Shown: piece after piece, positions 899-41,324 of the stretch
Layout of the letters: each line of letters begins with the position of its first letter
Numbering within the stretch: position 1 is the first letter of the stretch
Assembly (NCBI RefSeq): GCF_044324875.1
Contig: NZ_CP172185.1
Origin: Escherichia coli
GTDB lineage: Bacteria; Pseudomonadota; Gammaproteobacteria; Enterobacterales; Enterobacteriaceae
Reading direction: 5' to 3' (one strand)
Length of the DNA: 64,000 nucleotides
Made by a program: the position numbers and the translations under genes
The notes under the pieces: model-generated
Databases searched by the model: none
Seen by the model: the letters and a program-made list of their open reading frames with translations, nothing else
What the model was told of the DNA's origin: nothing

Positions 899-1108
899 TG
901 TTGTGTACTCTGTAATTTTTATCTGTCTGTGCGCTATGCCTATATTGGTTAAAGTATTTAGTGACCTAAGTCAATAAAATTTTAATTTACTCACGGCAGG
1001 TAACCAGTTCAGAAGCTGCTATCAGACACTCTTTTTTTAATCCACACAGAGACATATTGCCCGTTGCAGTCAGAATGAAAAGCTGAAAAATACTTACTAA
1101 GGCGTTTT

Positions 1109-1795
1109 TTATTTGGTGATATTTTTTTCAATATCATGCAGCAAACGGTGCAACATTGCCGTGTCTCGTTGCTCTAAAAGCCCCAGACGTTGTTGTAACC
1201 AGTCGACCAGTTTTGTGTCATCTGCCACTGCCAGAGTCGTCAGCAATGCCATGGCTCGTTCGCGTAAAGCTTGCAGTTGATGTTGGTCTGCCATTGTGTC
1301 ACTTTTCGCCGGTTGTTGTATTAATGTTGCTAATTGATAGCAATAGACCATCACCGCCTGCCCCAGATTGAGCGAAGGATAATCCGCCACCATCGGCACA
1401 CCAGTAAGAACGTCAGCCAACGCTAACTCTTCGTTAGTCAACCCGGAATCTTCGCGACCAAACACCAGCGCGGCATGGCTCATCCATGAAGATTTTTCCT
1501 CTAACAGCGGCACCAGTTCTACTGGCGTAGCGTAGTAATGATATTTCGCCCGACTGCGCGCAGTGGTGGCAACAGTGAAATCGACATCGTGTAACGATTC
1601 AGCCAGTGTCGGGAAAACTTTAATATTATCAATAATATCACCAGATCCATGTGCGACCCAGCGGGTGGCTGGCTCCAGGTGTGCCTGACTATCGACAATC
1701 CGCAGTTCGCTAAACCCCATCGTTTTCATTGCCCGCGCCGCTGCCCCAATATTTTCTGCTCTGGCGGGTGCGACCAGAATAATCGTTATACGCAT
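1109..1795 (-). CDS. lasT: SpoU/TrmH-type RNA methyltransferase (228 aa from internal Met)
   Basis: ORF 1109..1816; protein MRITIILVAPARAENIGAAARAMKTMGF...; position between thrL and arcA matches K-12 yjtD. Confidence 0.8.
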   Translation of the reverse strand: MRITIILVAPARAENIGAAARAMKTMGFSELRIVDSQAHLEPATRWVAHGSGDIIDNIKVFPTLAESLHDVDFTVATTARSRAKYHYYATPVELVPLLEEKSSWMSHAALVFGREDSGLTNEELALADVLTGVPMVADYPSLNLGQAVMVYCYQLATLIQQPAKSDTMADQHQLQALRERAMALLTTLAVADDTKLVDWLQQRLGLLEQRDTAMLHRLLHDIEKNITK

Positions 1796-2194
1796 ATTGC
1801 CACTCTTCTTGATCAAATAACCGCGAACCGAGTGATCACTGTCAACTTATTACGCGGTGAGAATTTACAAATTCTTAACGTAAGTCGCAGAAAAAGCCCT
1901 TTACTTAGCTTAAAAAAGGCTAAACTATTTCCTGACTGTACTAACGGTTGAATTGTTAAAAAATGCTACATATCCTTCTGTTTACTTAGGATAATTTTAT
2001 AAAAAATAAATCTCGACAATTGGATTCACCACGTTTATTAGTTGTATGATGCAACTAGTTGGATTATTAAAATAATGTGACGAAAGCTAGCATTTAGATA
2101 CGATGATTTCATCAAACTGTTAACGTGCTACAATTGAACTTGATATATGTCAACGAAGCGTAGTTTTATTGGGTGTCCGGCCCCTCTTAGCCTG

Positions 2195-2335
2195 TTATGT
2201 TGCTGTTAAAATGGTTAGGATGACAGCCGTTTTTGACACTGTCGGGTCCTGAGGGAAAGTACCCACGACCAAGCTAATGATGTTGTTGACGTTGATGGAA
2301 AGTGCATCAAGAACGCAATTACGTACTTTAGTCAT
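2195..2335 (-). CDS. yjjY: Small protein YjjY (46 aa)
   Basis: Hand translation of minus strand: MTKVRNCVLDALSINVNNIISLVVGTFPQDPTVSKTAVILTILTAT*; below the ORF-track size cutoff; between lasT and arcA. Confidence 0.65.
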   Translation of the reverse strand: MTKVRNCVLDALSINVNNIISLVVGTFPQDPTVSKTAVILTILTAT

Positions 2336-2430
2336 GTTACGCCGATCATGTTAATTTGCAGCATGCATCAGGCAGGTCAGGGACTTTTGTACTTCCTGTT
2401 TCGATTTAGTTGGCAATTTAGGTAGCAAAC

Positions 2431-3147
2431 ATGCAGACCCCGCACATTCTTATCGTTGAAGACGAGTTGGTAACACGCAACACGTTGAAAAGTATTTTCG
2501 AAGCGGAAGGCTATGATGTTTTCGAAGCGACAGATGGCGCGGAAATGCATCAGATCCTCTCTGAATATGACATCAACCTGGTGATCATGGATATCAATCT
2601 GCCGGGTAAGAACGGTCTTCTGTTAGCGCGTGAACTGCGCGAGCAGGCGAATGTTGCGTTGATGTTCCTGACTGGCCGTGACAACGAAGTCGATAAAATT
2701 CTCGGCCTCGAAATCGGTGCAGATGACTACATCACCAAACCGTTCAACCCGCGTGAACTGACTATTCGTGCACGCAACCTGCTGTCCCGTACCATGAATC
2801 TGGGTACTGTCAGCGAAGAACGTCGTAGCGTTGAAAGCTACAAGTTCAATGGTTGGGAACTGGACATCAACAGCCGTTCGTTGATCGGCCCTGATGGCGA
2901 GCAGTACAAGCTGCCGCGCAGCGAGTTCCGCGCCATGCTTCACTTCTGTGAAAACCCAGGCAAAATTCAGTCCCGTGCTGAACTGCTGAAGAAAATGACC
3001 GGCCGTGAGCTGAAACCGCACGACCGTACTGTAGACGTGACGATCCGCCGTATTCGTAAACATTTCGAATCTACGCCGGATACGCCGGAAATCATCGCCA
3101 CCATTCACGGTGAAGGTTATCGCTTCTGCGGTGATCTGGAAGATTAA
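2431..3147 (+). CDS. arcA: Aerobic respiration control response regulator ArcA
   Basis: 238 aa; [36 protein letters not shown]... receiver domain plus OmpR-type winged helix. Confidence 0.97.
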
Positions 3148-3160
3148 TCGGCTTTACCAC

Positions 3161-3196
3161 CGTCAAAAAAAACGGCGCTTTTTAGCGCCGTTTTTA
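3161..3196. terminator. Bidirectional rho-independent terminator between convergent arcA and creD
   Basis: aaaaaaaacggcgct-tttt-agcgccgtttttatttt: GC stem flanked by A-run and T-run. Confidence 0.6.
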
Positions 3197-3206
3197 TTTT
3201 TCAACC

Positions 3207-4559
3207 TTATTTCCAGATACGTAATTCATCGTCCGTTGTAACTTCTTTACTGGCTTTCATTTTCGGCAGTGAAAACGCATACCAGTCGATATTACGGGTC
3301 ACAAACATCATGCCGGCCAGCGCCACCACCAGCACACTGGTTCCCAACAACAGCGCGCTATCGGCAGAGTTGAGCAGTCCCCACATCACACCATCCAGCA
3401 ACAACAGCGCGAGGGTAAACAACATGCTATTGCGCCAGCCTTTCAATACCGCCTGCAAATAAATACCGTTCATTAACGCCCCAATCAGACTGGCGATTAT
3501 CCATGCCACGGTAAAACCGATATGTTCAGAAAGCGCCAGCAAGAGCAAATAAAACATCACCAATGAAAGCCCCACCAGCAAATATTGCATTGGGTGTAAA
3601 CGTTGCGCGGTGAGCGTTTCAAAAACAAAGAACGCCATAAAAGTCAGTGCAATCAGCAGAATGGCGTACTTAGTCGCCCGGTCAGTTAATTGGTATTGAT
3701 CGGCTGGCGTCGTTACTGCGACGCTAAACGCCGGGAAGTTTTCCCAGCCGGTATCATTGCCTGAAGCAAAACGCTCACCGAGATTATTAGCAAACCAGCT
3801 GCTTTGCCAGTGCGCCTGAAAACCTGACTCGCTAACTTCCCGTTTGGCTGGTAGAAAATCACCTAAAAAACTGGGATGCGGCCAGTTGCTGGTTAAGGTC
3901 ATTTCGCTATTACGCCCGCCAGGCACCACAGAAAGATCGCCGGTACCGCTTAAATTCAGGGCCATATTCAGCTTCAGGTTCTGCTTCCGCCAGTCCCCTT
4001 CAGGTAAAGGGATATGCACGCCCTGCCCGCCTTGCTCTAACCCGGTGCCGGGTTCAATGGTCAGCGCCGTTCCGTTAACTTCAGGCGCTTTCACCACACC
4101 AATACCACGCGCATCCCCGACGCTAATCACAATAAATGGCTTGCCTAAGGTGATATTTGGCGCGTTGAGTTCGCTAAGACGCGAAACATCGAAATCGGCT
4201 TTTAGCGTTAAATCACTGTGCCAGACCTGACCGGTATAAATCCCTATCTTGCGTTCTTCCACGTTCTGATTGCCATCAACCATCAATGACTCAGGTAACC
4301 AAAAATGGATAAAACTTCGTTTCCGCTCCACGGTTTTATCCTCTTCCTGCACCGTATAAAGCTCGGTCACAGGAATAGCGATGAGCGGCCCAACGAGTTT
4401 TTGCGGCCCGCTGGTACTTTGGCGAATCGCATCTTCCACATCGCTACGGTAATCAGCACGTTCGACAATCACCTGCCGAATCAGCATTATCGGAATCAAC
4501 AACAGCAATACTGCACCAAACAGGGTGGTCATTTTCCAGAACAGGGGGGATTTCAACAT
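3207..4559 (-). CDS. creD: Inner membrane protein CreD
   Basis: 450 aa; membrane protein downstream of creC in creABCD order. Confidence 0.9.
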   Translation of the reverse strand: MLKSPLFWKMTTLFGAVLLLLIPIMLIRQVIVERADYRSDVEDAIRQSTSGPQKLVGPLIAIPVTELYTVQEEDKTVERKRSFIHFWLPESLMVDGNQNVEERKIGIYTGQVWHSDLTLKADFDVSRLSELNAPNITLGKPFIVISVGDARGIGVVKAPEVNGTALTIEPGTGLEQGGQGVHIPLPEGDWRKQNLKLNMALNLSGTGDLSVVPGGRNSEMTLTSNWPHPSFLGDFLPAKREVSESGFQAHWQSSWFANNLGERFASGNDTGWENFPAFSVAVTTPADQYQLTDRATKYAILLIALTFMAFFVFETLTAQRLHPMQYLLVGLSLVMFYLLLLALSEHIGFTVAWIIASLIGALMNGIYLQAVLKGWRNSMLFTLALLLLDGVMWGLLNSADSALLLGTSVLVVALAGMMFVTRNIDWYAFSLPKMKASKEVTTDDELRIWK

Positions 4560-4616
4560 AGTCTTCTCCTTTGCAATGGCAGCAGGATACGAAGGCTATG
4601 TGGGAAGAATTTGAAG

Positions 4617-6041
4617 CTATGTGAAGTGACGGTGAAGTCGAAGCGAAGCCAGCACGCCACCTTCCTGCACGTTGCGCAGCGTGACTTCGCCGTTAAACAA
4701 ACGGGCGACCTCACTGACGAACGCCAACCCCAGACCGCTGCTTTTTTGCCCATTTGCACGAGGCAAAGAGTAAAAGCGTTCAAAAATACGTGAAAGCGCG
4801 TAGTCAGGAATACCACTACCGGTATCCAGCACCTTAAGCGTGACGTGTTCCTGCTCCACTTCGGCGCTTAGCGTGATGCAACCGCTCTCGGGGGTAAAAT
4901 CGATGGCGTTATCCAGTAAATTTCCCAGCGCCTGCTCCAGTAACGCCGGTTCAGCAGCAACGTTAACCTCGGTGGGCGTAACATGCAGAGTGATTTTTTT
5001 TTCTGCCAACTGCACGGTGCGCGCTTCGCTGACGCGGCGAAATAATGCCGCCACATCAACAGCAGTCAGAACGACTTCCTGACGATTCTCCAGTCTTGCC
5101 TGGCGTAGAAACGTTTCTACCAATGCCTGCATACGCACATTTTGCGTCAGAATGTTGTCAGTAAAACGAGCCACCACTTCCGGCGGCGGACCTTCGCGTA
5201 AAATTTCCGCCGCTCCACGAATCGCCGCCAGTGGGCTTTTTAGCTCATGAGTTAATGCGTAAACATACTGCTCAATATAGTTTTTCCCTTCCAGCTTCAC
5301 GCGCATACTTTCCAGCGCCTGCGCGAGTTTACGCAGCTCGCTACTACCGAGATCGGGGAGAGGAACGGGCTTATTGTCAGTGACGGAATCAGCATAGCGA
5401 GTGAGCCGGGCAATGGAGCGGTTGATCCACCAAACCATGCCTGCGCCAATCACCAGTGCAATCCCCAACAAAATGGCGCTGGCCCATAAAATTCGCCGCT
5501 CGCTGCGTTTAATGACCGGAGCCATCGCCGCGTTCGGTTTGCCTACGCTCAAAACGCCAATAAGCCGCGAGCCGTCCATAATCGGCGCGGCAACATACAT
5601 CACCGAACTTTCGGGATCGGTAGGATTTTGCAACGTGCTGCGCGCACCATACTGACCACGCAACGTTAGCCAGACGTCATTCCAGCGCGAATAATCCTGT
5701 CCAACGGCTTTATTTGCCGAATCGAACAATACTTTGCCCTGCGCATCGGTCATATAGACATGATATTCATTGCGCACTTTGTTAATGCCACCGATATTGG
5801 CGCGAAACGGGCGATGCTGTAGCTGATTAAACGCCTGCGCCAGTTGCCCATGCGTTGGGTCCCCAGAGAGCAAATCGGGACGCGCCAGCTCCGCCAGCAA
5901 CGTTGCGGTGTCGATCAATGTCCCCTCCGTTGCTCTTCGCACGCCCGGTTTAACTTCTTTGACAAAAATGGCCAGTACGAACCAGGCTGCCACCGCCACC
6001 AGTAAAAAATAGCCCAGCAACAACCGCATGCCGATACGCAT
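4617..6041 (-). CDS. creC: Sensor histidine kinase CreC
   Basis: 474 aa; N-terminal transmembrane segment, HisKA motif ALTHELKSPLAAIRG, ATPase domain; overlaps creB stop. Confidence 0.92.
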   Translation of the reverse strand: MRIGMRLLLGYFLLVAVAAWFVLAIFVKEVKPGVRRATEGTLIDTATLLAELARPDLLSGDPTHGQLAQAFNQLQHRPFRANIGGINKVRNEYHVYMTDAQGKVLFDSANKAVGQDYSRWNDVWLTLRGQYGARSTLQNPTDPESSVMYVAAPIMDGSRLIGVLSVGKPNAAMAPVIKRSERRILWASAILLGIALVIGAGMVWWINRSIARLTRYADSVTDNKPVPLPDLGSSELRKLAQALESMRVKLEGKNYIEQYVYALTHELKSPLAAIRGAAEILREGPPPEVVARFTDNILTQNVRMQALVETFLRQARLENRQEVVLTAVDVAALFRRVSEARTVQLAEKKITLHVTPTEVNVAAEPALLEQALGNLLDNAIDFTPESGCITLSAEVEQEHVTLKVLDTGSGIPDYALSRIFERFYSLPRANGQKSSGLGLAFVSEVARLFNGEVTLRNVQEGGVLASLRLHRHFT

Positions 6042-27690: not shown

Positions 27691-29013
27691 TTATTCGCTG
27701 ATACGGCGATAGACAGTTGGTGTGCTTTCCGGTGCTTTATCGGCAAGTTTAATTGCCGCTTTCACCGCTTTAGCCGCTTCCTGCCAGCTGTTTTCGTCTT
27801 TCGCGTGGATAACCGCCAGCGGACGCTGACCGTCTACCTGGTCGCCCAGACGCGCCATATCAGTAAAGCCGACGCTGTAATCGATGGTGTCAGATGCCTG
27901 ACGGCGTCCGCCGCCCATTGCAACCACTGCCATCCCCAGCGCACGGGTATCCATTTCACTGACAAAACCTTCGGTATCAGCATAGACTGCTTTCGTCAGC
28001 ATCGCTGTCGGTAGATACTTCGCGTAGTTCTCAACGAAGTCAGTCGGGCCTTTTTGTGCCGCTACCATACGACCAAAGACTTCTGCCGCTTTACCGTTGT
28101 CCAGCACCGCCTGCAATTTCGCGCGCGCTTCGGCGTCATCTTTCGCCAGTTTGCCGGAGATAAGCATCTCTACGCACAGCGCCATCGTGACATCAAACAG
28201 ACGCGGGTTACGATACTCACCCGTCAGGAACTGCACCGCTTCACGAACTTCAACCGCGTTACCTGCACTGGAGGCCAGTACCTGATTCATATCGGTGAGC
28301 AGCGCGGTGGTACGCACGCCAGCGCCGTTAGCCACGCCAACAATCGCTTCGGCAAGGGCTTCAGAGAGTTCGTAGGTCGGCATAAACGCGCCGCTACCCA
28401 CTTTCACGTCCATCACCAGCGCGTCCAGACCTTCCGCCAGTTTCTTCGCCAGAATAGAGGCGGTGATCAGCGGGATGGAGTCCACGGTTGCGGTAATATC
28501 ACGGGTCGCGTAGAAACGTTTATCCGCCGGAGCCAGTGAGCTGGTCTGGCCGATAATCGCCACGCCGACGTCTTTAATAATTTCGCGGAAACGGTTGTCA
28601 TCCGGGAAAATGTCGAAGCCAGGGATGGATTCCAGTTTGTCGAGCGTACCGCCAGTATGACCGAGGCCGCGACCGGAGATCATCGGAATGTAACCACCGC
28701 AGGCAGCAACCATCGGCCCCAACATCAGCGAAGTGACATCGCCGACGCCGCCGGTGGAATGTTTATCAACAATCGGGCCATTCAGATGCAGGCTTTTCCA
28801 GTCGAGAACGGTTCCTGAATCTCGCATCGCCATGGTCAGCGAGACACGCTCAGGCATTGTCATATCGTGGAAGAAAATGGTCATCGCGAGGGCGGCAATC
28901 TGCCCTTCGGAGATAGTGTTGTCGCGAATACCGTTGATAAAGAAACGAATTTCTTCATCGCTCAGCGCATGACCATCACGTTTTTTACGAATAATTTCTT
29001 GTGCGAGAAACAA
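27691..29013 (-). CDS. deoA: Thymidine phosphorylase
   Basis: ORF 27691..29082; TTG start at 29013 gives 440 aa (L/M)[31 protein letters not shown]... Confidence 0.95.
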
Positions 29014-29090
29014 GGTAACCTCCCGTGGAAAAGAGACGAGGTAATCGGGGAACCGGATGAGCATCGCTGCGTCATCCGGCAAATCAAGCC

Positions 29091-29870
29091 TTAGTAGCTG
29101 CTGGCGCTCTTACCGTCGCCGTGGCCCAGCGCTTTCAGCAGGCTTGCCAGCAGGCTGGAAGCACCAAAGCGGTAGTGACGCGCATCAGCCCAGTCAGCAC
29201 CGAACAGTTCATCTGCGATAGCGAGATATTTCTGCGCATCTTCCGCAGTACGCACGCCGCCCGCCGGTTTGAAACCAACGGTTTTTTCTACGCCCATATC
29301 ACGGATCACTTCCATCATGATGCGCGCGCTTTCCGGCGTCGCGTTCACAGCCACTTTACCGGTAGAGGTTTTGATGAAGTCCGCACCCGCTTTGATGGAG
29401 ATTTCAGACGCTTTACGGATCAGCGCTTCGTCTTTTAGTTCGCCGGTTTCGATGATCACTTTCAGCAGTACATTCGCTGCCGCGCAAGCCTCTTTACAGG
29501 CTTTCACCAGGTCAAAACCAACCTGCTCGTTACCCGCCATCAGCGCGCGGTACGGGAACACAACGTCAACTTCATCAGCACCGTAGGCGATTGCCGCACG
29601 GGTTTCTGCCAGCGCGATGTCGATGTCGTCGTTACCGTGTGGGAAGTTGGTTACCGTAGCGATACGGATTTCCGGGGTACCCTGCTCTTTCAGCGTTTTG
29701 CGAGCAATTGGGATAAAGCGAGGATAGATACAGATAGCGGCGGTATTGCCGACCGGAGTTTTGGCCTGATGACACAGAGCAATTACTTTCTCGTCGGTGT
29801 CGTCGTCATTCAGGGTGGTCAGGTCCATCAATTTCAGTGCACGCAGGCTGCTTGCTTTCAGATCAGTCAT
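29091..29870 (-). CDS. deoC: Deoxyribose-phosphate aldolase
   Basis: ORF 29091..29894; 259 aa from [36 protein letters not shown]... Confidence 0.97.
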
Positions 29871-29914
29871 TTCATTCTCCTGGCTTGTCGCCAATAAAAT
29901 TCACCTTGCGAGTT

Positions 29915-29930
29915 TGTTAGTATTCTAACA
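29915..29930 (-). promoter_or_regulatory. DeoR operator O2 at deoP2
   Basis: Minus strand reads TGTTAGAATACTAACA, ending 44 nt upstream of deoC ATG. Confidence 0.85.
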
Positions 29931-29939
29931 TCTACTCCG

Positions 29940-30012
29940 CAACACACTTCGATATACATCACAATTAAGGAAATCTACTTACAAGTTTGCATCACTGTAA
30001 TGCGATCTGGTT
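29940..30012 (-). promoter_or_regulatory. deoP2 CRP/CytR binding region
   Basis: Minus strand reads TTATTTGAACCAGATCGCATTACAGTGATGCAAACTTGTAAGTAGATTTCCTTAATTGTGATGTGTATCGAAGTGTGTT with tandem TGTGA-type half-sites, matching the remembered deoP2 region. Confidence 0.6.
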
Positions 30013-30127
30013 CAAATAATTCACTTTCAAATGAATGCGTCAGTGGTGGCAAACGCATCAGGATCAAAGTGAACATCACGAAACTTCTTACAATGGCGCA
30101 TCACCTTCGGCATAAAAGGAAAAGAAG

Positions 30128-31678
30128 ATGCCCACTTCTCATGAGATTGCACTGCAACAACGTTGCCAGCAAATTGTCACCAGTCCGGTACTTAGCCCGG
30201 AGCAGAAGCGCCATTTTCTGGCGCTGGAAGCAGAAAACAATCTGCCTTATCCGCAGCTTCCTGCCGAAGCCCGCCGCGCGCTGGATGAGGGTGTAATCTG
30301 CGATATGTTTGAAGGTCATGCGCCGTACAAACCGCGCTATGTCTTACCCGATTACGCCCGTTTTCTGGCGAACGGTTCCGAATGGCTGGAGCTGGAAGGC
30401 GCGAAAGATCTTGATGATGCACTCTCTCTGCTGACCATTCTTTACCACCACGTACCGTCGGTCACATCGATGCCGGTCTACCTGGGGCAACTGGATGCGT
30501 TGTTGCAACCGTATGTTAGAATTCTAACACAAGACGAGATCGATATTCGAATAAAACGTTTCTGGCGTTACCTCGACAGAACCCTGCCAGACGCCTTTAT
30601 GCACGCCAATATCGGCCCGTCTGATTCGCCCATCACCCGTGCAATCTTACGTGCAGATGCAGAGCTGAAGCAGGTTTCACCGAACCTGACCTTTATCTAC
30701 GATCCTGAAATCACCCCTGATGACCTGCTGCAGGAAGTGGCGAAGAACATCTGTGAATGTAGCAAACCGCACATCGCCAACGGTCCGGTGCATGATAAAA
30801 TTTTCACAAAAGGGGGCTACGGGATTGTGAGCTGTTACAACTCACTGCCGCTGGCGGGTGGTGGCAGCACGCTGGTACGCCTTAACCTGAAAGCCATTGC
30901 CGAGCGCAGCGAATCGCTGGAAGACTTCTTTACGCGCACTCTACCGCACTACTGCCAGCAGCAGATCGCCATCATCGATGCGCGGTGTGAATTCCTCTAT
31001 CAACAATCACACTTCTTTGAGAATAGCTTCCTGGTGAAAGAAGGGCTGATTAACCCTGAACGTTTTGTGCCAATGTTTGGCATGTATGGGCTGGCGGAAG
31101 CGGTTAACTTGCTGTGTGAAAAAGAAGGGATTGCCGCGCGCTACGGTAAAGAGGCCGCCGCAAATGAAGTGGGTTATCGCATCAGCGCGCAACTGGCGGA
31201 GTTTGTCGCCAATACCCCCGTGAAATATGGCTGGCAAAAACGCGCCATGTTGCACGCACAGTCGGGGATCAGTTCTGATATCGGCACCACGCCGGGCGCA
31301 CGCTTGCCGTATGGCGATGAGCCAGATCCGATCACCCATCTGCAAACTGTCGCCCCGCATCATGCTTATTATTATTCCGGCATCAGCGACATTCTGACGC
31401 TCGACGAAACCATCAAACGTAATCCGCAGGCGCTGGTACAGCTTTGCCTCGGTGCCTTTAAAGCCGGAATGCGTGAATTTACCGCCAATGTCAGCGGTAA
31501 CGATCTGGTTCGCGTTACCGGTTATATGGTGCGTTTGTCGGATTTAGAAAAATATCGCGCCGAAGGTTCACGTACCAACACCACCTGGCTGGGCGAAGAG
31601 GCCGCACGCAATACTCGTATTCTGGAACGCCAGCCGCGCGTGATAAGCCATGAACAGCAGATGCGCTTTAGTCAGTAA
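30128..31678 (+). CDS. yjjI: Glycyl-radical-enzyme-like protein YjjI (DUF3029)
   Basis: 516 aa; C-terminal glycyl-radical-type fingerprint RVTGY; followed by overlapping radical-SAM activase gene. Confidence 0.9.
30514..30529 (-). promoter_or_regulatory. DeoR operator O1 (deoP1), inside yjjI coding sequence
   Basis: Perfect 16-bp palindrome TGTTAGAATTCTAACA; centre 599 bp from O2 centre. Confidence 0.8.
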
Positions 31679-32513
31679 GATTATCCCCTTCTCCTGCGTT
31701 GACGGGCCAGGCAGTCGTCTGGCTCTGTTTTTGCAGGGCTGCAATCTGCGTTGCAAAAATTGTCACAATCCGTGGACGATGGGACGCTGCAATGACTGCG
31801 GGGAGTGCGTGCCGCAGTGTCCGCATCAGGCGTTGCAGATTGTTGACGGCAAAGTGGTGTGGAACGCTGTGGTTTGCGAGCAATGTGATACCTGCCTGAA
31901 GAGGTGTCCGCAACATGCCACGCCAATGGCGCAATCCATGAGCGTGGATGAGGTGCTTAGCCATATCCGCAAAGCGGTGCTGTTTATTGAAGGGATAACG
32001 GTAAGCGGCGGCGAAGCCACGACCCAACTGCCGTTTGTAGTGGCGCTGTTTACTGCTATAAAAAACGATCCGCAACTGCGCCACCTCACCTGCCTGGTGG
32101 ACAGTAACGGTATGTTGAGCGAAACCGGCTGGGAAAAATTGCTCCCGGTGTGCGACGGCGCAATGCTCGATCTCAAAGCGTGGGGGAGCGAATGTCATCA
32201 GCAATTAACCGGACGCGATAATCAGCAGATTAAGCGCAGCATCTGTTTGCTTACCGAACGCGGTAAGCTGGCGGAACTGCGTTTGCTGGTAATCCCTGGC
32301 CAGGTGGATTATTTGCAACACATCGATGAGCTGGCGGCGTTTATCAAGGGACTTGGCGATGTTCCGGTACGCCTGAACGCGTTTCATGCCCACGGCGTGT
32401 ATGGCGAGGCGCAAAGCTGGCCGAGTGCCACGCCGGAAGACGTTGAGCCATTGGCTGATGCGTTAAAGGTGCGCGGGGTGAGCCGGTTAATATTTCCGGC
32501 GCTATATTTGTGA
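31650..32513 (+). CDS. yjjW: Glycyl-radical enzyme activating protein (radical SAM plus ferredoxin-like Cys clusters)
   Basis: 287 aa; CNLRCKNC (CX3CX2C) radical SAM motif, additional CxxCxxC clusters, SGGE; overlaps yjjI by 29 nt. Confidence 0.9.
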
Positions 32514-41001: not shown

Positions 41002-41088
41002 GCGAAGGTGGCGGAATTGGTAGACGCGCTAGCTTCAGGTGTTAGTGTCCTTACGGACGTGGGGGTTCAAGTCCCCCCCCTCGCACCA
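41002..41088 (+). tRNA. leuQ: tRNA-Leu (anticodon CAG), copy 1
   Basis: GCGAAGGTGGCGGAATTGGTAGACGCGCTAGCTTCAGGTGTTAGTGTCCTTACGGACGTGGGGGTTCAAGTCCCCCCCCTCGCACCA; cloverleaf with long variable arm. Confidence 0.93.
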
Positions 41089-41116
41089 AAAACCACGTTG
41101 ATATTGCTCGCACTGG

Positions 41117-41203
41117 GCGAAGGTGGCGGAATTGGTAGACGCGCTAGCTTCAGGTGTTAGTGTTCTTACGGACGTGGGGGTTCAAGTCCCCCCCCTCGCA
41201 CCA
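41117..41203 (+). tRNA. leuP: tRNA-Leu (CAG), copy 2, with C-to-T change in variable arm
   Basis: Identical to copy 1 except GTGTTCTTACGG for GTGTCCTTACGG. Confidence 0.9.
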
Positions 41204-41237
41204 AACGAGGCGATATCAAAAAAAGTAAGACGACTGT

Positions 41238-41324
41238 GCGAAGGTGGCGGAATTGGTAGACGCGCTAGCTTCAGGTGTTAGTGTCCTTACGGACGTGGGG
41301 GTTCAAGTTCCCCCCCTCGCACCA
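41238..41324 (+). tRNA. leuV: tRNA-Leu (CAG), copy 3, with C-to-T change in T-stem
   Basis: Identical to copy 1 except TTCAAGTTCCCC for TTCAAGTCCCCC (G-U wobble in T-stem). Confidence 0.9.

Follow-up and report, generated by a model that had tools for sequence, protein, structure and literature searches.

Three 16-bp sites in the window, the 64,000-nucleotide stretch of Escherichia coli DNA analysed here, are with a probability of about 95% the DeoR operators O2, O1 and OE of the E. coli deoCABD operon. The system in the window is the classical K-12 deo operator system in another E. coli strain. The deo O1/O2/OE system ranks among the founding examples of repression at long range through DNA looping, and both it and the position of the promoter deoP1 inside yjjI are already known, which makes the finding correct but ordinary. 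What is new is the comparative support from 80 species, and this is an illustration of regulatory DNA within a coding sequence rather than a discovery. This work established the sites and how they are spaced, that they are identical to those of K-12, and that selection acts on them at the DNA level; DeoR binding, looping and the inducer are taken from the literature, and the transcription start sites are those of the literature or were inferred by us. The genes and operators concerned are as follows.

29091 to 29870, minus strand: deoC coding sequence, 259 aa, ATG at 29870, first gene of deoCABD (RefSeq annotation of the matching stretch)
29915 to 29930, minus strand: O2, DeoR operator, reading TGTTAGTATTCTAACA on the plus strand and TGTTAGAATACTAACA on the minus strand, with one mismatch to the palindrome
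30514 to 30529, minus strand: O1, DeoR operator, TGTTAGAATTCTAACA, a perfect 16-bp palindrome
30793 to 30808, no strand assigned: OE, DeoR operator, TGATAAAATTTTCACA (given as tgataaaattttcaca in the original prediction), with 12 of 16 positions matching O1
30128 to 31678, plus strand: yjjI coding sequence, 516 aa, which hosts O1, deoP1 and OE (list of open reading frames and RefSeq annotation)

The part of the window from 29000 to 31700 has a full-length match in 5,423 of the 5,426 complete E. coli genomes, and the features annotated under it are deoA, deoC, yjjI and yjjW. Directly downstream of the operator sites, deoC and then deoA follow on the minus strand. The open reading frame listed for deoC extends from 29091 to 29894, and the ATG at 29870 yields the 259 aa given above. 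For the yjjI product, an uncharacterised glycyl-radical enzyme, the NCBIfam match is TIGR04040 (‘YjjI family glycine radical enzyme’; E = 1e-237). The yjjW gene starts on the plus strand at 31650 and overlaps the end of yjjI by 29 nt. A search of positions 29000-32000 against Rfam gave no match.

O2 and the perfect palindrome O1 were found at exactly the positions that had been claimed for them from the sequence, namely 29915-29930 on the minus strand and 30514-30529, respectively. Their centres (29922.5 and 30521.5) are 599 bp apart, as predicted, and the same value is given in the literature (PMC3334521). The claim that O1 lies 387 bp inside yjjI holds as well, since nucleotide 387 of the coding sequence (open reading frame 30128-31678) is the first one of O1. 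The 16-bp palindrome, TGTTAGAA/TTCTAACA, overlaps the -10 hexamer of both tandem promoters. When up to three mismatches to the palindrome are allowed, O1 and O2 are the only two sites in the 64 kb, against an expectation of 0.20 derived from dinucleotide shuffles. At 12 or more matches out of 16, only four sites are present in the 64 kb, namely O2, O1, the third site and a position in a tRNA-Leu gene at 41155. A full-text literature search with the operator sequences themselves found no paper.

The third site was predicted as a 12/16 match at 30794-30809, about 280 bp upstream of O1, where OE is expected. The sequence is present with that number of matches, its four differences from O1 included, at 30793-30808, one position away from the coordinates first given. 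Its centre (30800.5) is 878 bp from that of O2 and exactly 279 bp from that of O1, within the range of about 280-300 bp upstream of O1 at which the third operator of the system is placed. In the papers of 1987-1989, OE reportedly stands 279 bp upstream of O1. The candidate third site is the known OE; it is under the strong DNA-level selection described below, and the literature gives a position about 300 bp upstream of O1 for OE (PMC8053113). A weight matrix was built solely from the orthologous O1 and O2 variants of other species, leaving OE out; it ranks OE third of 63,985 positions, with 17.3 bits versus 9.4 bits for the next best position. The left half of OE on the minus strand, TGTGAAAA, is an O1 variant that is present in some Citrobacter species.

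The same three 16-mers occur in K-12 MG1655 (NC_000913.3), with O1 at 4616664-79, O2 at 4617263-78 and OE at 4616385-400, and both spacings, 599 and 279 bp, equal those in the window. Compared without gaps over 1.1 kb, the window and K-12 differ by 18 substitutions, all outside the sites, and by no indel. MG1655 is the strain of the DeoR looping experiments. With respect to the deoCABD operators of K-12, the sequences, the 599- and 279-bp spacings and the flanking genes are thus all the same here, and the elements of the system do not differ; the differences are limited to the 18 substitutions outside the operators. The deo operator system was reportedly described by Valentin-Hansen in 1982, Dandanell and Hammer in 1985, Dandanell in 1987, and Amouyal and Mortensen in 1989. 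The 599 bp between the promoters deoP1 and deoP2 are bridged by DeoR looping, which locks the two together (PMC3334521). At the tandem promoters, DeoR occupies O1 and O2, which are separated by about 600 bp, and OE lies about 300 bp beyond them on the upstream side; loops among all deo sites have been seen by electron microscopy, O1-O2 looping in vivo amounts to about 72%, and the binding of K-12 DeoR to the sites and the relief of repression by deoxyribose-5-phosphate are described in the same literature (PMC8053113). DeoR looping has been stated to work ‘up to 900 bp naturally’ (PMC4217526), a range that fits the 878 bp between O2 and OE. The prediction that deoP1 lies within yjjI finds support in print, as a deoCABD promoter ‘in an upstream gene, yjjI’ was reported in 2019 on the basis of sigma-70 ChIP-seq and RNA-seq (PMC6389913).

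The promoter elements that accompany the operators are the following.

29927 to 29922, minus strand: hexamer of the deoP2 extended -10 (TGT-TAGAAT), overlapped by O2, with the P2 start expected at about 29915
30526 to 30521, minus strand: hexamer of the deoP1 extended -10 (TGT-TAGAAT), inside O1, with the P1 start expected at about 30514
29948 to 29963, no strand assigned: CRP site 1 of deoP2, TTCGATATACATCACA, centred at -40.5 if P2 starts at 29915
30001 to 30016, no strand assigned: CRP site 2 of deoP2, TGCGATCTGGTTCAAA, centred at -93.5
30128 to 30514, minus strand: part of the deoP1 leader predicted from the geometry to be antisense to yjjI codons 1-129
30548 to 30567, minus strand: conserved island, CGCCAGAAACGTTTTATTCG on the minus strand, about -34 to -53 of deoP1 and probably its -35/UP zone

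In the classical system, the operator palindromes overlap the -10 regions of deoP1 and deoP2. On the deoC strand of the window, both O1 and O2 read TGT-TAGAAT, an extended -10 inside the operator. The deoP2 start was placed at about 29915 because the centres of the two CRP sites then fall at -40.5 and -93.5, that is, 53 bp apart, which is the classical deoP2 architecture; with this start, the TAGAAT of P2 is located at -12 to -7. CRP site 1, when reverse-complemented, is the 16-mer that a CRP ChIP-seq study of enterotoxigenic E. coli (ETEC) reported as the site between yjjI and deoC. As the P2 arrangement is repeated 599 bp away, the P1 start is expected at about 30514. A start at 30540-30560 on the minus strand, as originally expected, is misplaced: the TAGAAT inside O1 points to a start near 30514, and positions 30540-30560 belong to the -35/UP zone, so that a missing start there would not speak against deoP1. 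The conserved island at 30548-30567 is probably this -35/UP zone, judging from its distance to the expected P1 start, and a small palindrome, AAACGTTT, is found inside it. Neither deoP1 nor deoP2 was called by a simple sigma-70 scan because their -35 hexamers are weak; its sole call is a plus-strand site over OE, with fewer calls than expected from shuffles.

From the P1 start (about 30514) to the deoC ATG (29870), the deoP1 leader measures about 644 nt by geometry. On the same geometry, deoP1 transcripts are predicted to begin in yjjI and must run antisense across its first 387 nt, after which the leader would cross the yjjI promoter region and then deoP2. Two minus-strand open reading frames (30101-30319 and 30192-30422) lie within the leader. 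They were set aside, being of the kind of antisense frame that persists owing to the rarity of TTA, CTA and TCA codons.

Selection on the sites was assessed in a comparative scan with one genome per species, in 80 loci that carry a YjjI orthologue and range from Escherichia to Proteus. In every non-Proteus locus with a long enough flank, deoC is the divergent neighbour of yjjI; this adjacency was seen in Escherichia, Citrobacter, Salmonella, Enterobacter, Kosakonia, Kluyvera, Hafnia and Edwardsiella. Where deoC adjoins yjjI, O1 is kept at 0-2 mismatches and O2 is found with at most three mismatches in 60 of 74 species. Among the 76 non-Proteus species, 64 have the OE sequence without change and the other 12 differ from it at one position; 279 bp separate OE from O1 in all of them.

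The conservation concerns the DNA beyond what the protein needs, as is evident from synonymous codon entropy, from rare codons and from the loss of the sites in Proteus. The O1 codons GTT AGA ATT CTA ACA are almost invariant in more than 70 species and the OE codons GAT AAA ATT TTC ACA in 70 species, whereas every synonym occurs among the neighbouring Pro, Val and Gly codons. Measured in 5-codon windows over 70 species, synonymous entropy averages 1.10 bit in yjjI; OE, with 0.022 bit, holds the minimum of the gene and O1, with 0.10 bit, the second-lowest value. The island at 30548-30567 is also of low synonymous entropy. With one sequence per genus (17 genera), the top three of 1,533 16-nt windows of yjjI are 30552-30567, which ranks first, OE and O1. 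In this set, 6.4% of all third codon positions are invariant, and O1 is the only run of at least four codons in which the third position is invariant throughout. The codons AGA and CTA each account for about 3% of the Arg and Leu codons in the window, respectively. Four of the seven AGA, CTA, CGA or ATA codons of yjjI are located in O1 or in the island just upstream, with AGA and CTA kept in O1 and CGA and ATA in the island.

In the four Proteus species, yjjI follows ytjB-serB and deoC is not adjacent. Both O1 and OE are absent there, their synonymous positions vary, and the peptides are VG[ENS]LT in place of VRILT at O1 and DAVFG in place of DKIFT at OE. As the sites are gone and the peptides changed where deo is not adjacent, DNA elements rather than the protein explain the conservation. 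The locus provides a quantified example of a coding gene that harbours a promoter and two operators of the adjoining operon. What this costs yjjI can be seen in rare codons (AGA, CTA, CGA and ATA) and fixed amino acids, with Proteus serving as the natural control.

The mechanism that very probably joins these elements is repression by looping. O1 and O2 each cover the extended -10 (TGT-TAGAAT) of one of the tandem promoters, deoP1 and deoP2, which stand 599 bp apart. A multivalent DeoR oligomer would bridge two or three of the operators, generating loops of 279, 599 and 878 bp. Looping would raise operator occupancy, occlude the -10 elements and shut both promoters until DeoR is released by deoxyribose-5-phosphate. 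The promoter deoP2 is additionally driven by its two CRP sites and anti-activated by CytR. Because deoP1, O1 and OE are situated inside the divergent yjjI coding sequence, the yjjI codons are constrained to spell them.

Three known systems resemble this arrangement. In lac, as in deo, a multivalent repressor loops a promoter-proximal operator to auxiliary operators, and one of these likewise lies within a coding sequence, namely O2 inside lacZ (O1-O2 loop of 401 bp); O3 is the other auxiliary operator. However, lac O2 is located inside a gene of the regulated operon and comes without a promoter, whereas deo has a whole promoter with its operator (P1/O1) as well as OE inside a divergent neighbour and two repressed promoters. 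In gal (OE/OI, with OI inside galE) and araBAD (O2-I1), repression also relies on looping between separated operators. The gal and araBAD loops are far shorter (about 114 and 210 bp, respectively) and depend on helical phase and HU, and their repressors are dimers that associate, whereas DeoR is a preformed hexamer or octamer.

In addition to deo regulation, and not as an alternative to it, the embedded promoter and operators could also control yjjI, which we consider possible but on balance unlikely. The yjjI gene is listed as directly activated by FNR. The associated ChIP peak lies about 93 bp before the yjjI ATG, and the entry carries the remark ‘TSS not known’ (PMC3688515). The peak corresponds to about position 30035 of the window, between deoC and yjjI. 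Between the two genes, no FNR box with at most two mismatches was found except one that overlaps CRP site 1. The promoters deoP1 and yjjI face each other at a distance of about 400-480 bp, and O1 and OE sit in the path of a polymerase that transcribes yjjI. With DeoR released, deoP1 would fire head-on at the FNR-dependent yjjI promoter and yield a 387-nt antisense RNA. In the other state, with DeoR on O1 and OE in a loop, the repressor may obstruct RNA polymerase on its way through yjjI. Control of this kind is favoured by the geometry of deoP1, O1 and OE relative to yjjI, by the FNR activation of yjjI and by the retention, from Escherichia to Edwardsiella, of the deoC-yjjI adjacency with P1, O1 and OE inside yjjI, but the role in deo regulation fully explains the conservation of the sites. 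For 29 papers mentioning yjjI, the titles and the openings of the abstracts give no report of DeoR-dependent yjjI expression.

A stronger form of the same idea, somewhat less probable again, would make yjjI-yjjW a hidden member of the DeoR regulon whose anaerobic, FNR-driven expression is lowered in both DeoR states. In the absence of deoxynucleosides, a looped DeoR roadblock at O1 and OE would lower yjjI expression; in their presence, head-on transcription and the antisense RNA would do so. If true, this would couple the glycyl-radical enzyme YjjI to deoxyribose catabolism through an arrangement that is kept from Escherichia to Edwardsiella. Of the whole finding, only the possible effect on yjjI goes beyond what is known, and it raises a specific, testable question: whether yjjI responds to antisense transcription from deoP1 or to a DeoR roadblock.

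Far less probable is that the conserved islands in yjjI mainly serve another role at the DNA level, such as CRP binding or an internal sense promoter for yjjI/yjjW, with DeoR binding being secondary. The plus strand of OE contains TG-A-TAAAAT, an extended -10, and the plus-strand site of the sigma-70 scan is promoter-like (TCGCCA-16-TAAAAT at 30774-30801); O1, being palindromic, shows TGTTAGAAT whichever strand is read. Internal transcription starts in the sense direction of yjjI are conceivable, but the -35-like hexamer of the plus-strand OE site is not conserved at synonymous positions. As for CRP, O1 and O2 are within two mismatches of the core TGTGA-N6-TCACA, and in ETEC H10407 a CRP ChIP-seq peak lies inside yjjI near O1, 544 bp from the deoP2 CRP site. 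The ETEC study assigned this intragenic peak to CGTACCGTCGGTCACA, at window positions 30451-30466. This sequence has three mismatches to the CRP core. Because deoP1 is classically CRP-independent, the peak could result from crosslinking through the DeoR loop; it could also stem from the weak site at 30451-30466 that the study named. DeoR looping on O1 and O2, by comparison, has been measured directly in vivo (PMC8053113).

Least probable of all is the explanation that OE is a chance 12/16 resemblance conserved for the needs of the YjjI protein or mRNA instead of DeoR: its four mismatches to O1 and the further 12/16 match that arises by chance in a tRNA-Leu gene of the window speak for it, but the distance of OE from O1 is exactly 279 bp, the synonymous positions of OE are near-invariant in 70 species, with the lowest entropy in yjjI, whereas the flanking codons drift, the Proteus peptide (DAVFG versus DKIFT) indicates that the YjjI protein does not require the OE sequence, the site stands 8 bits above background in a matrix built without it, and the literature puts OE at this place (PMC8053113).

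Returning to DeoR looping between O1, O2 and OE, the distance from O1 to the best O2 was compared across the 76 non-Proteus loci (L001-L076) and is distributed discontinuously. Most values are 596-604 bp, with separate groups at 589-592, 612 and 567-568 bp and none at 593-595, 605-611 or 569-588 bp; Hafnia has 626 bp and Edwardsiella 675 bp, both with poor O2 matches. The changes in spacing, of about 10-11 or about 32 bp, suggest that the helical phase between the operators is preserved, although only a small number of independent indel events underlies this pattern.

Low synonymous entropy in yjjI was also observed at 31010-31030 (peptide HFFENSF) and at 31646-31675, the latter because of the 29-nt overlap with the yjjW start and because of the yjjW ribosome-binding site. 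In the Proteus loci (L077-L080; e.g., L078, positions 953-5374), the gene order is serB on the opposite strand, ytjB, yjjI and yjjW, and these loci lack the segment with deoCABD that stands between yjjI and ytjB-serB in E. coli. The deo-yjjI junction is thus common to the Enterobacteriaceae and Hafniaceae and not to the Morganellaceae.

Three tandem tRNA-Leu(CAG) genes are located at 41002-41324 of the window, and two of them hold weak operator look-alikes, TGTTAGTGTTCTTACG (41155) and TGTTAGTGTCCTTACG (41276). Both were rejected as DeoR sites and are regarded as background matches within tRNA-Leu(CAG) genes.

Identity to the stretch 29000-31700 reaches at least 99% in only eight of the 5,423 matching E. 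coli genomes and is 95-99% in the rest; therefore, the strain of the window carries a minority allele of the deoC-yjjI region. Three of the places that match this stretch sit on plasmid records. A deoP1P2 fragment is in use in expression vectors, which may or may not account for these three matches.
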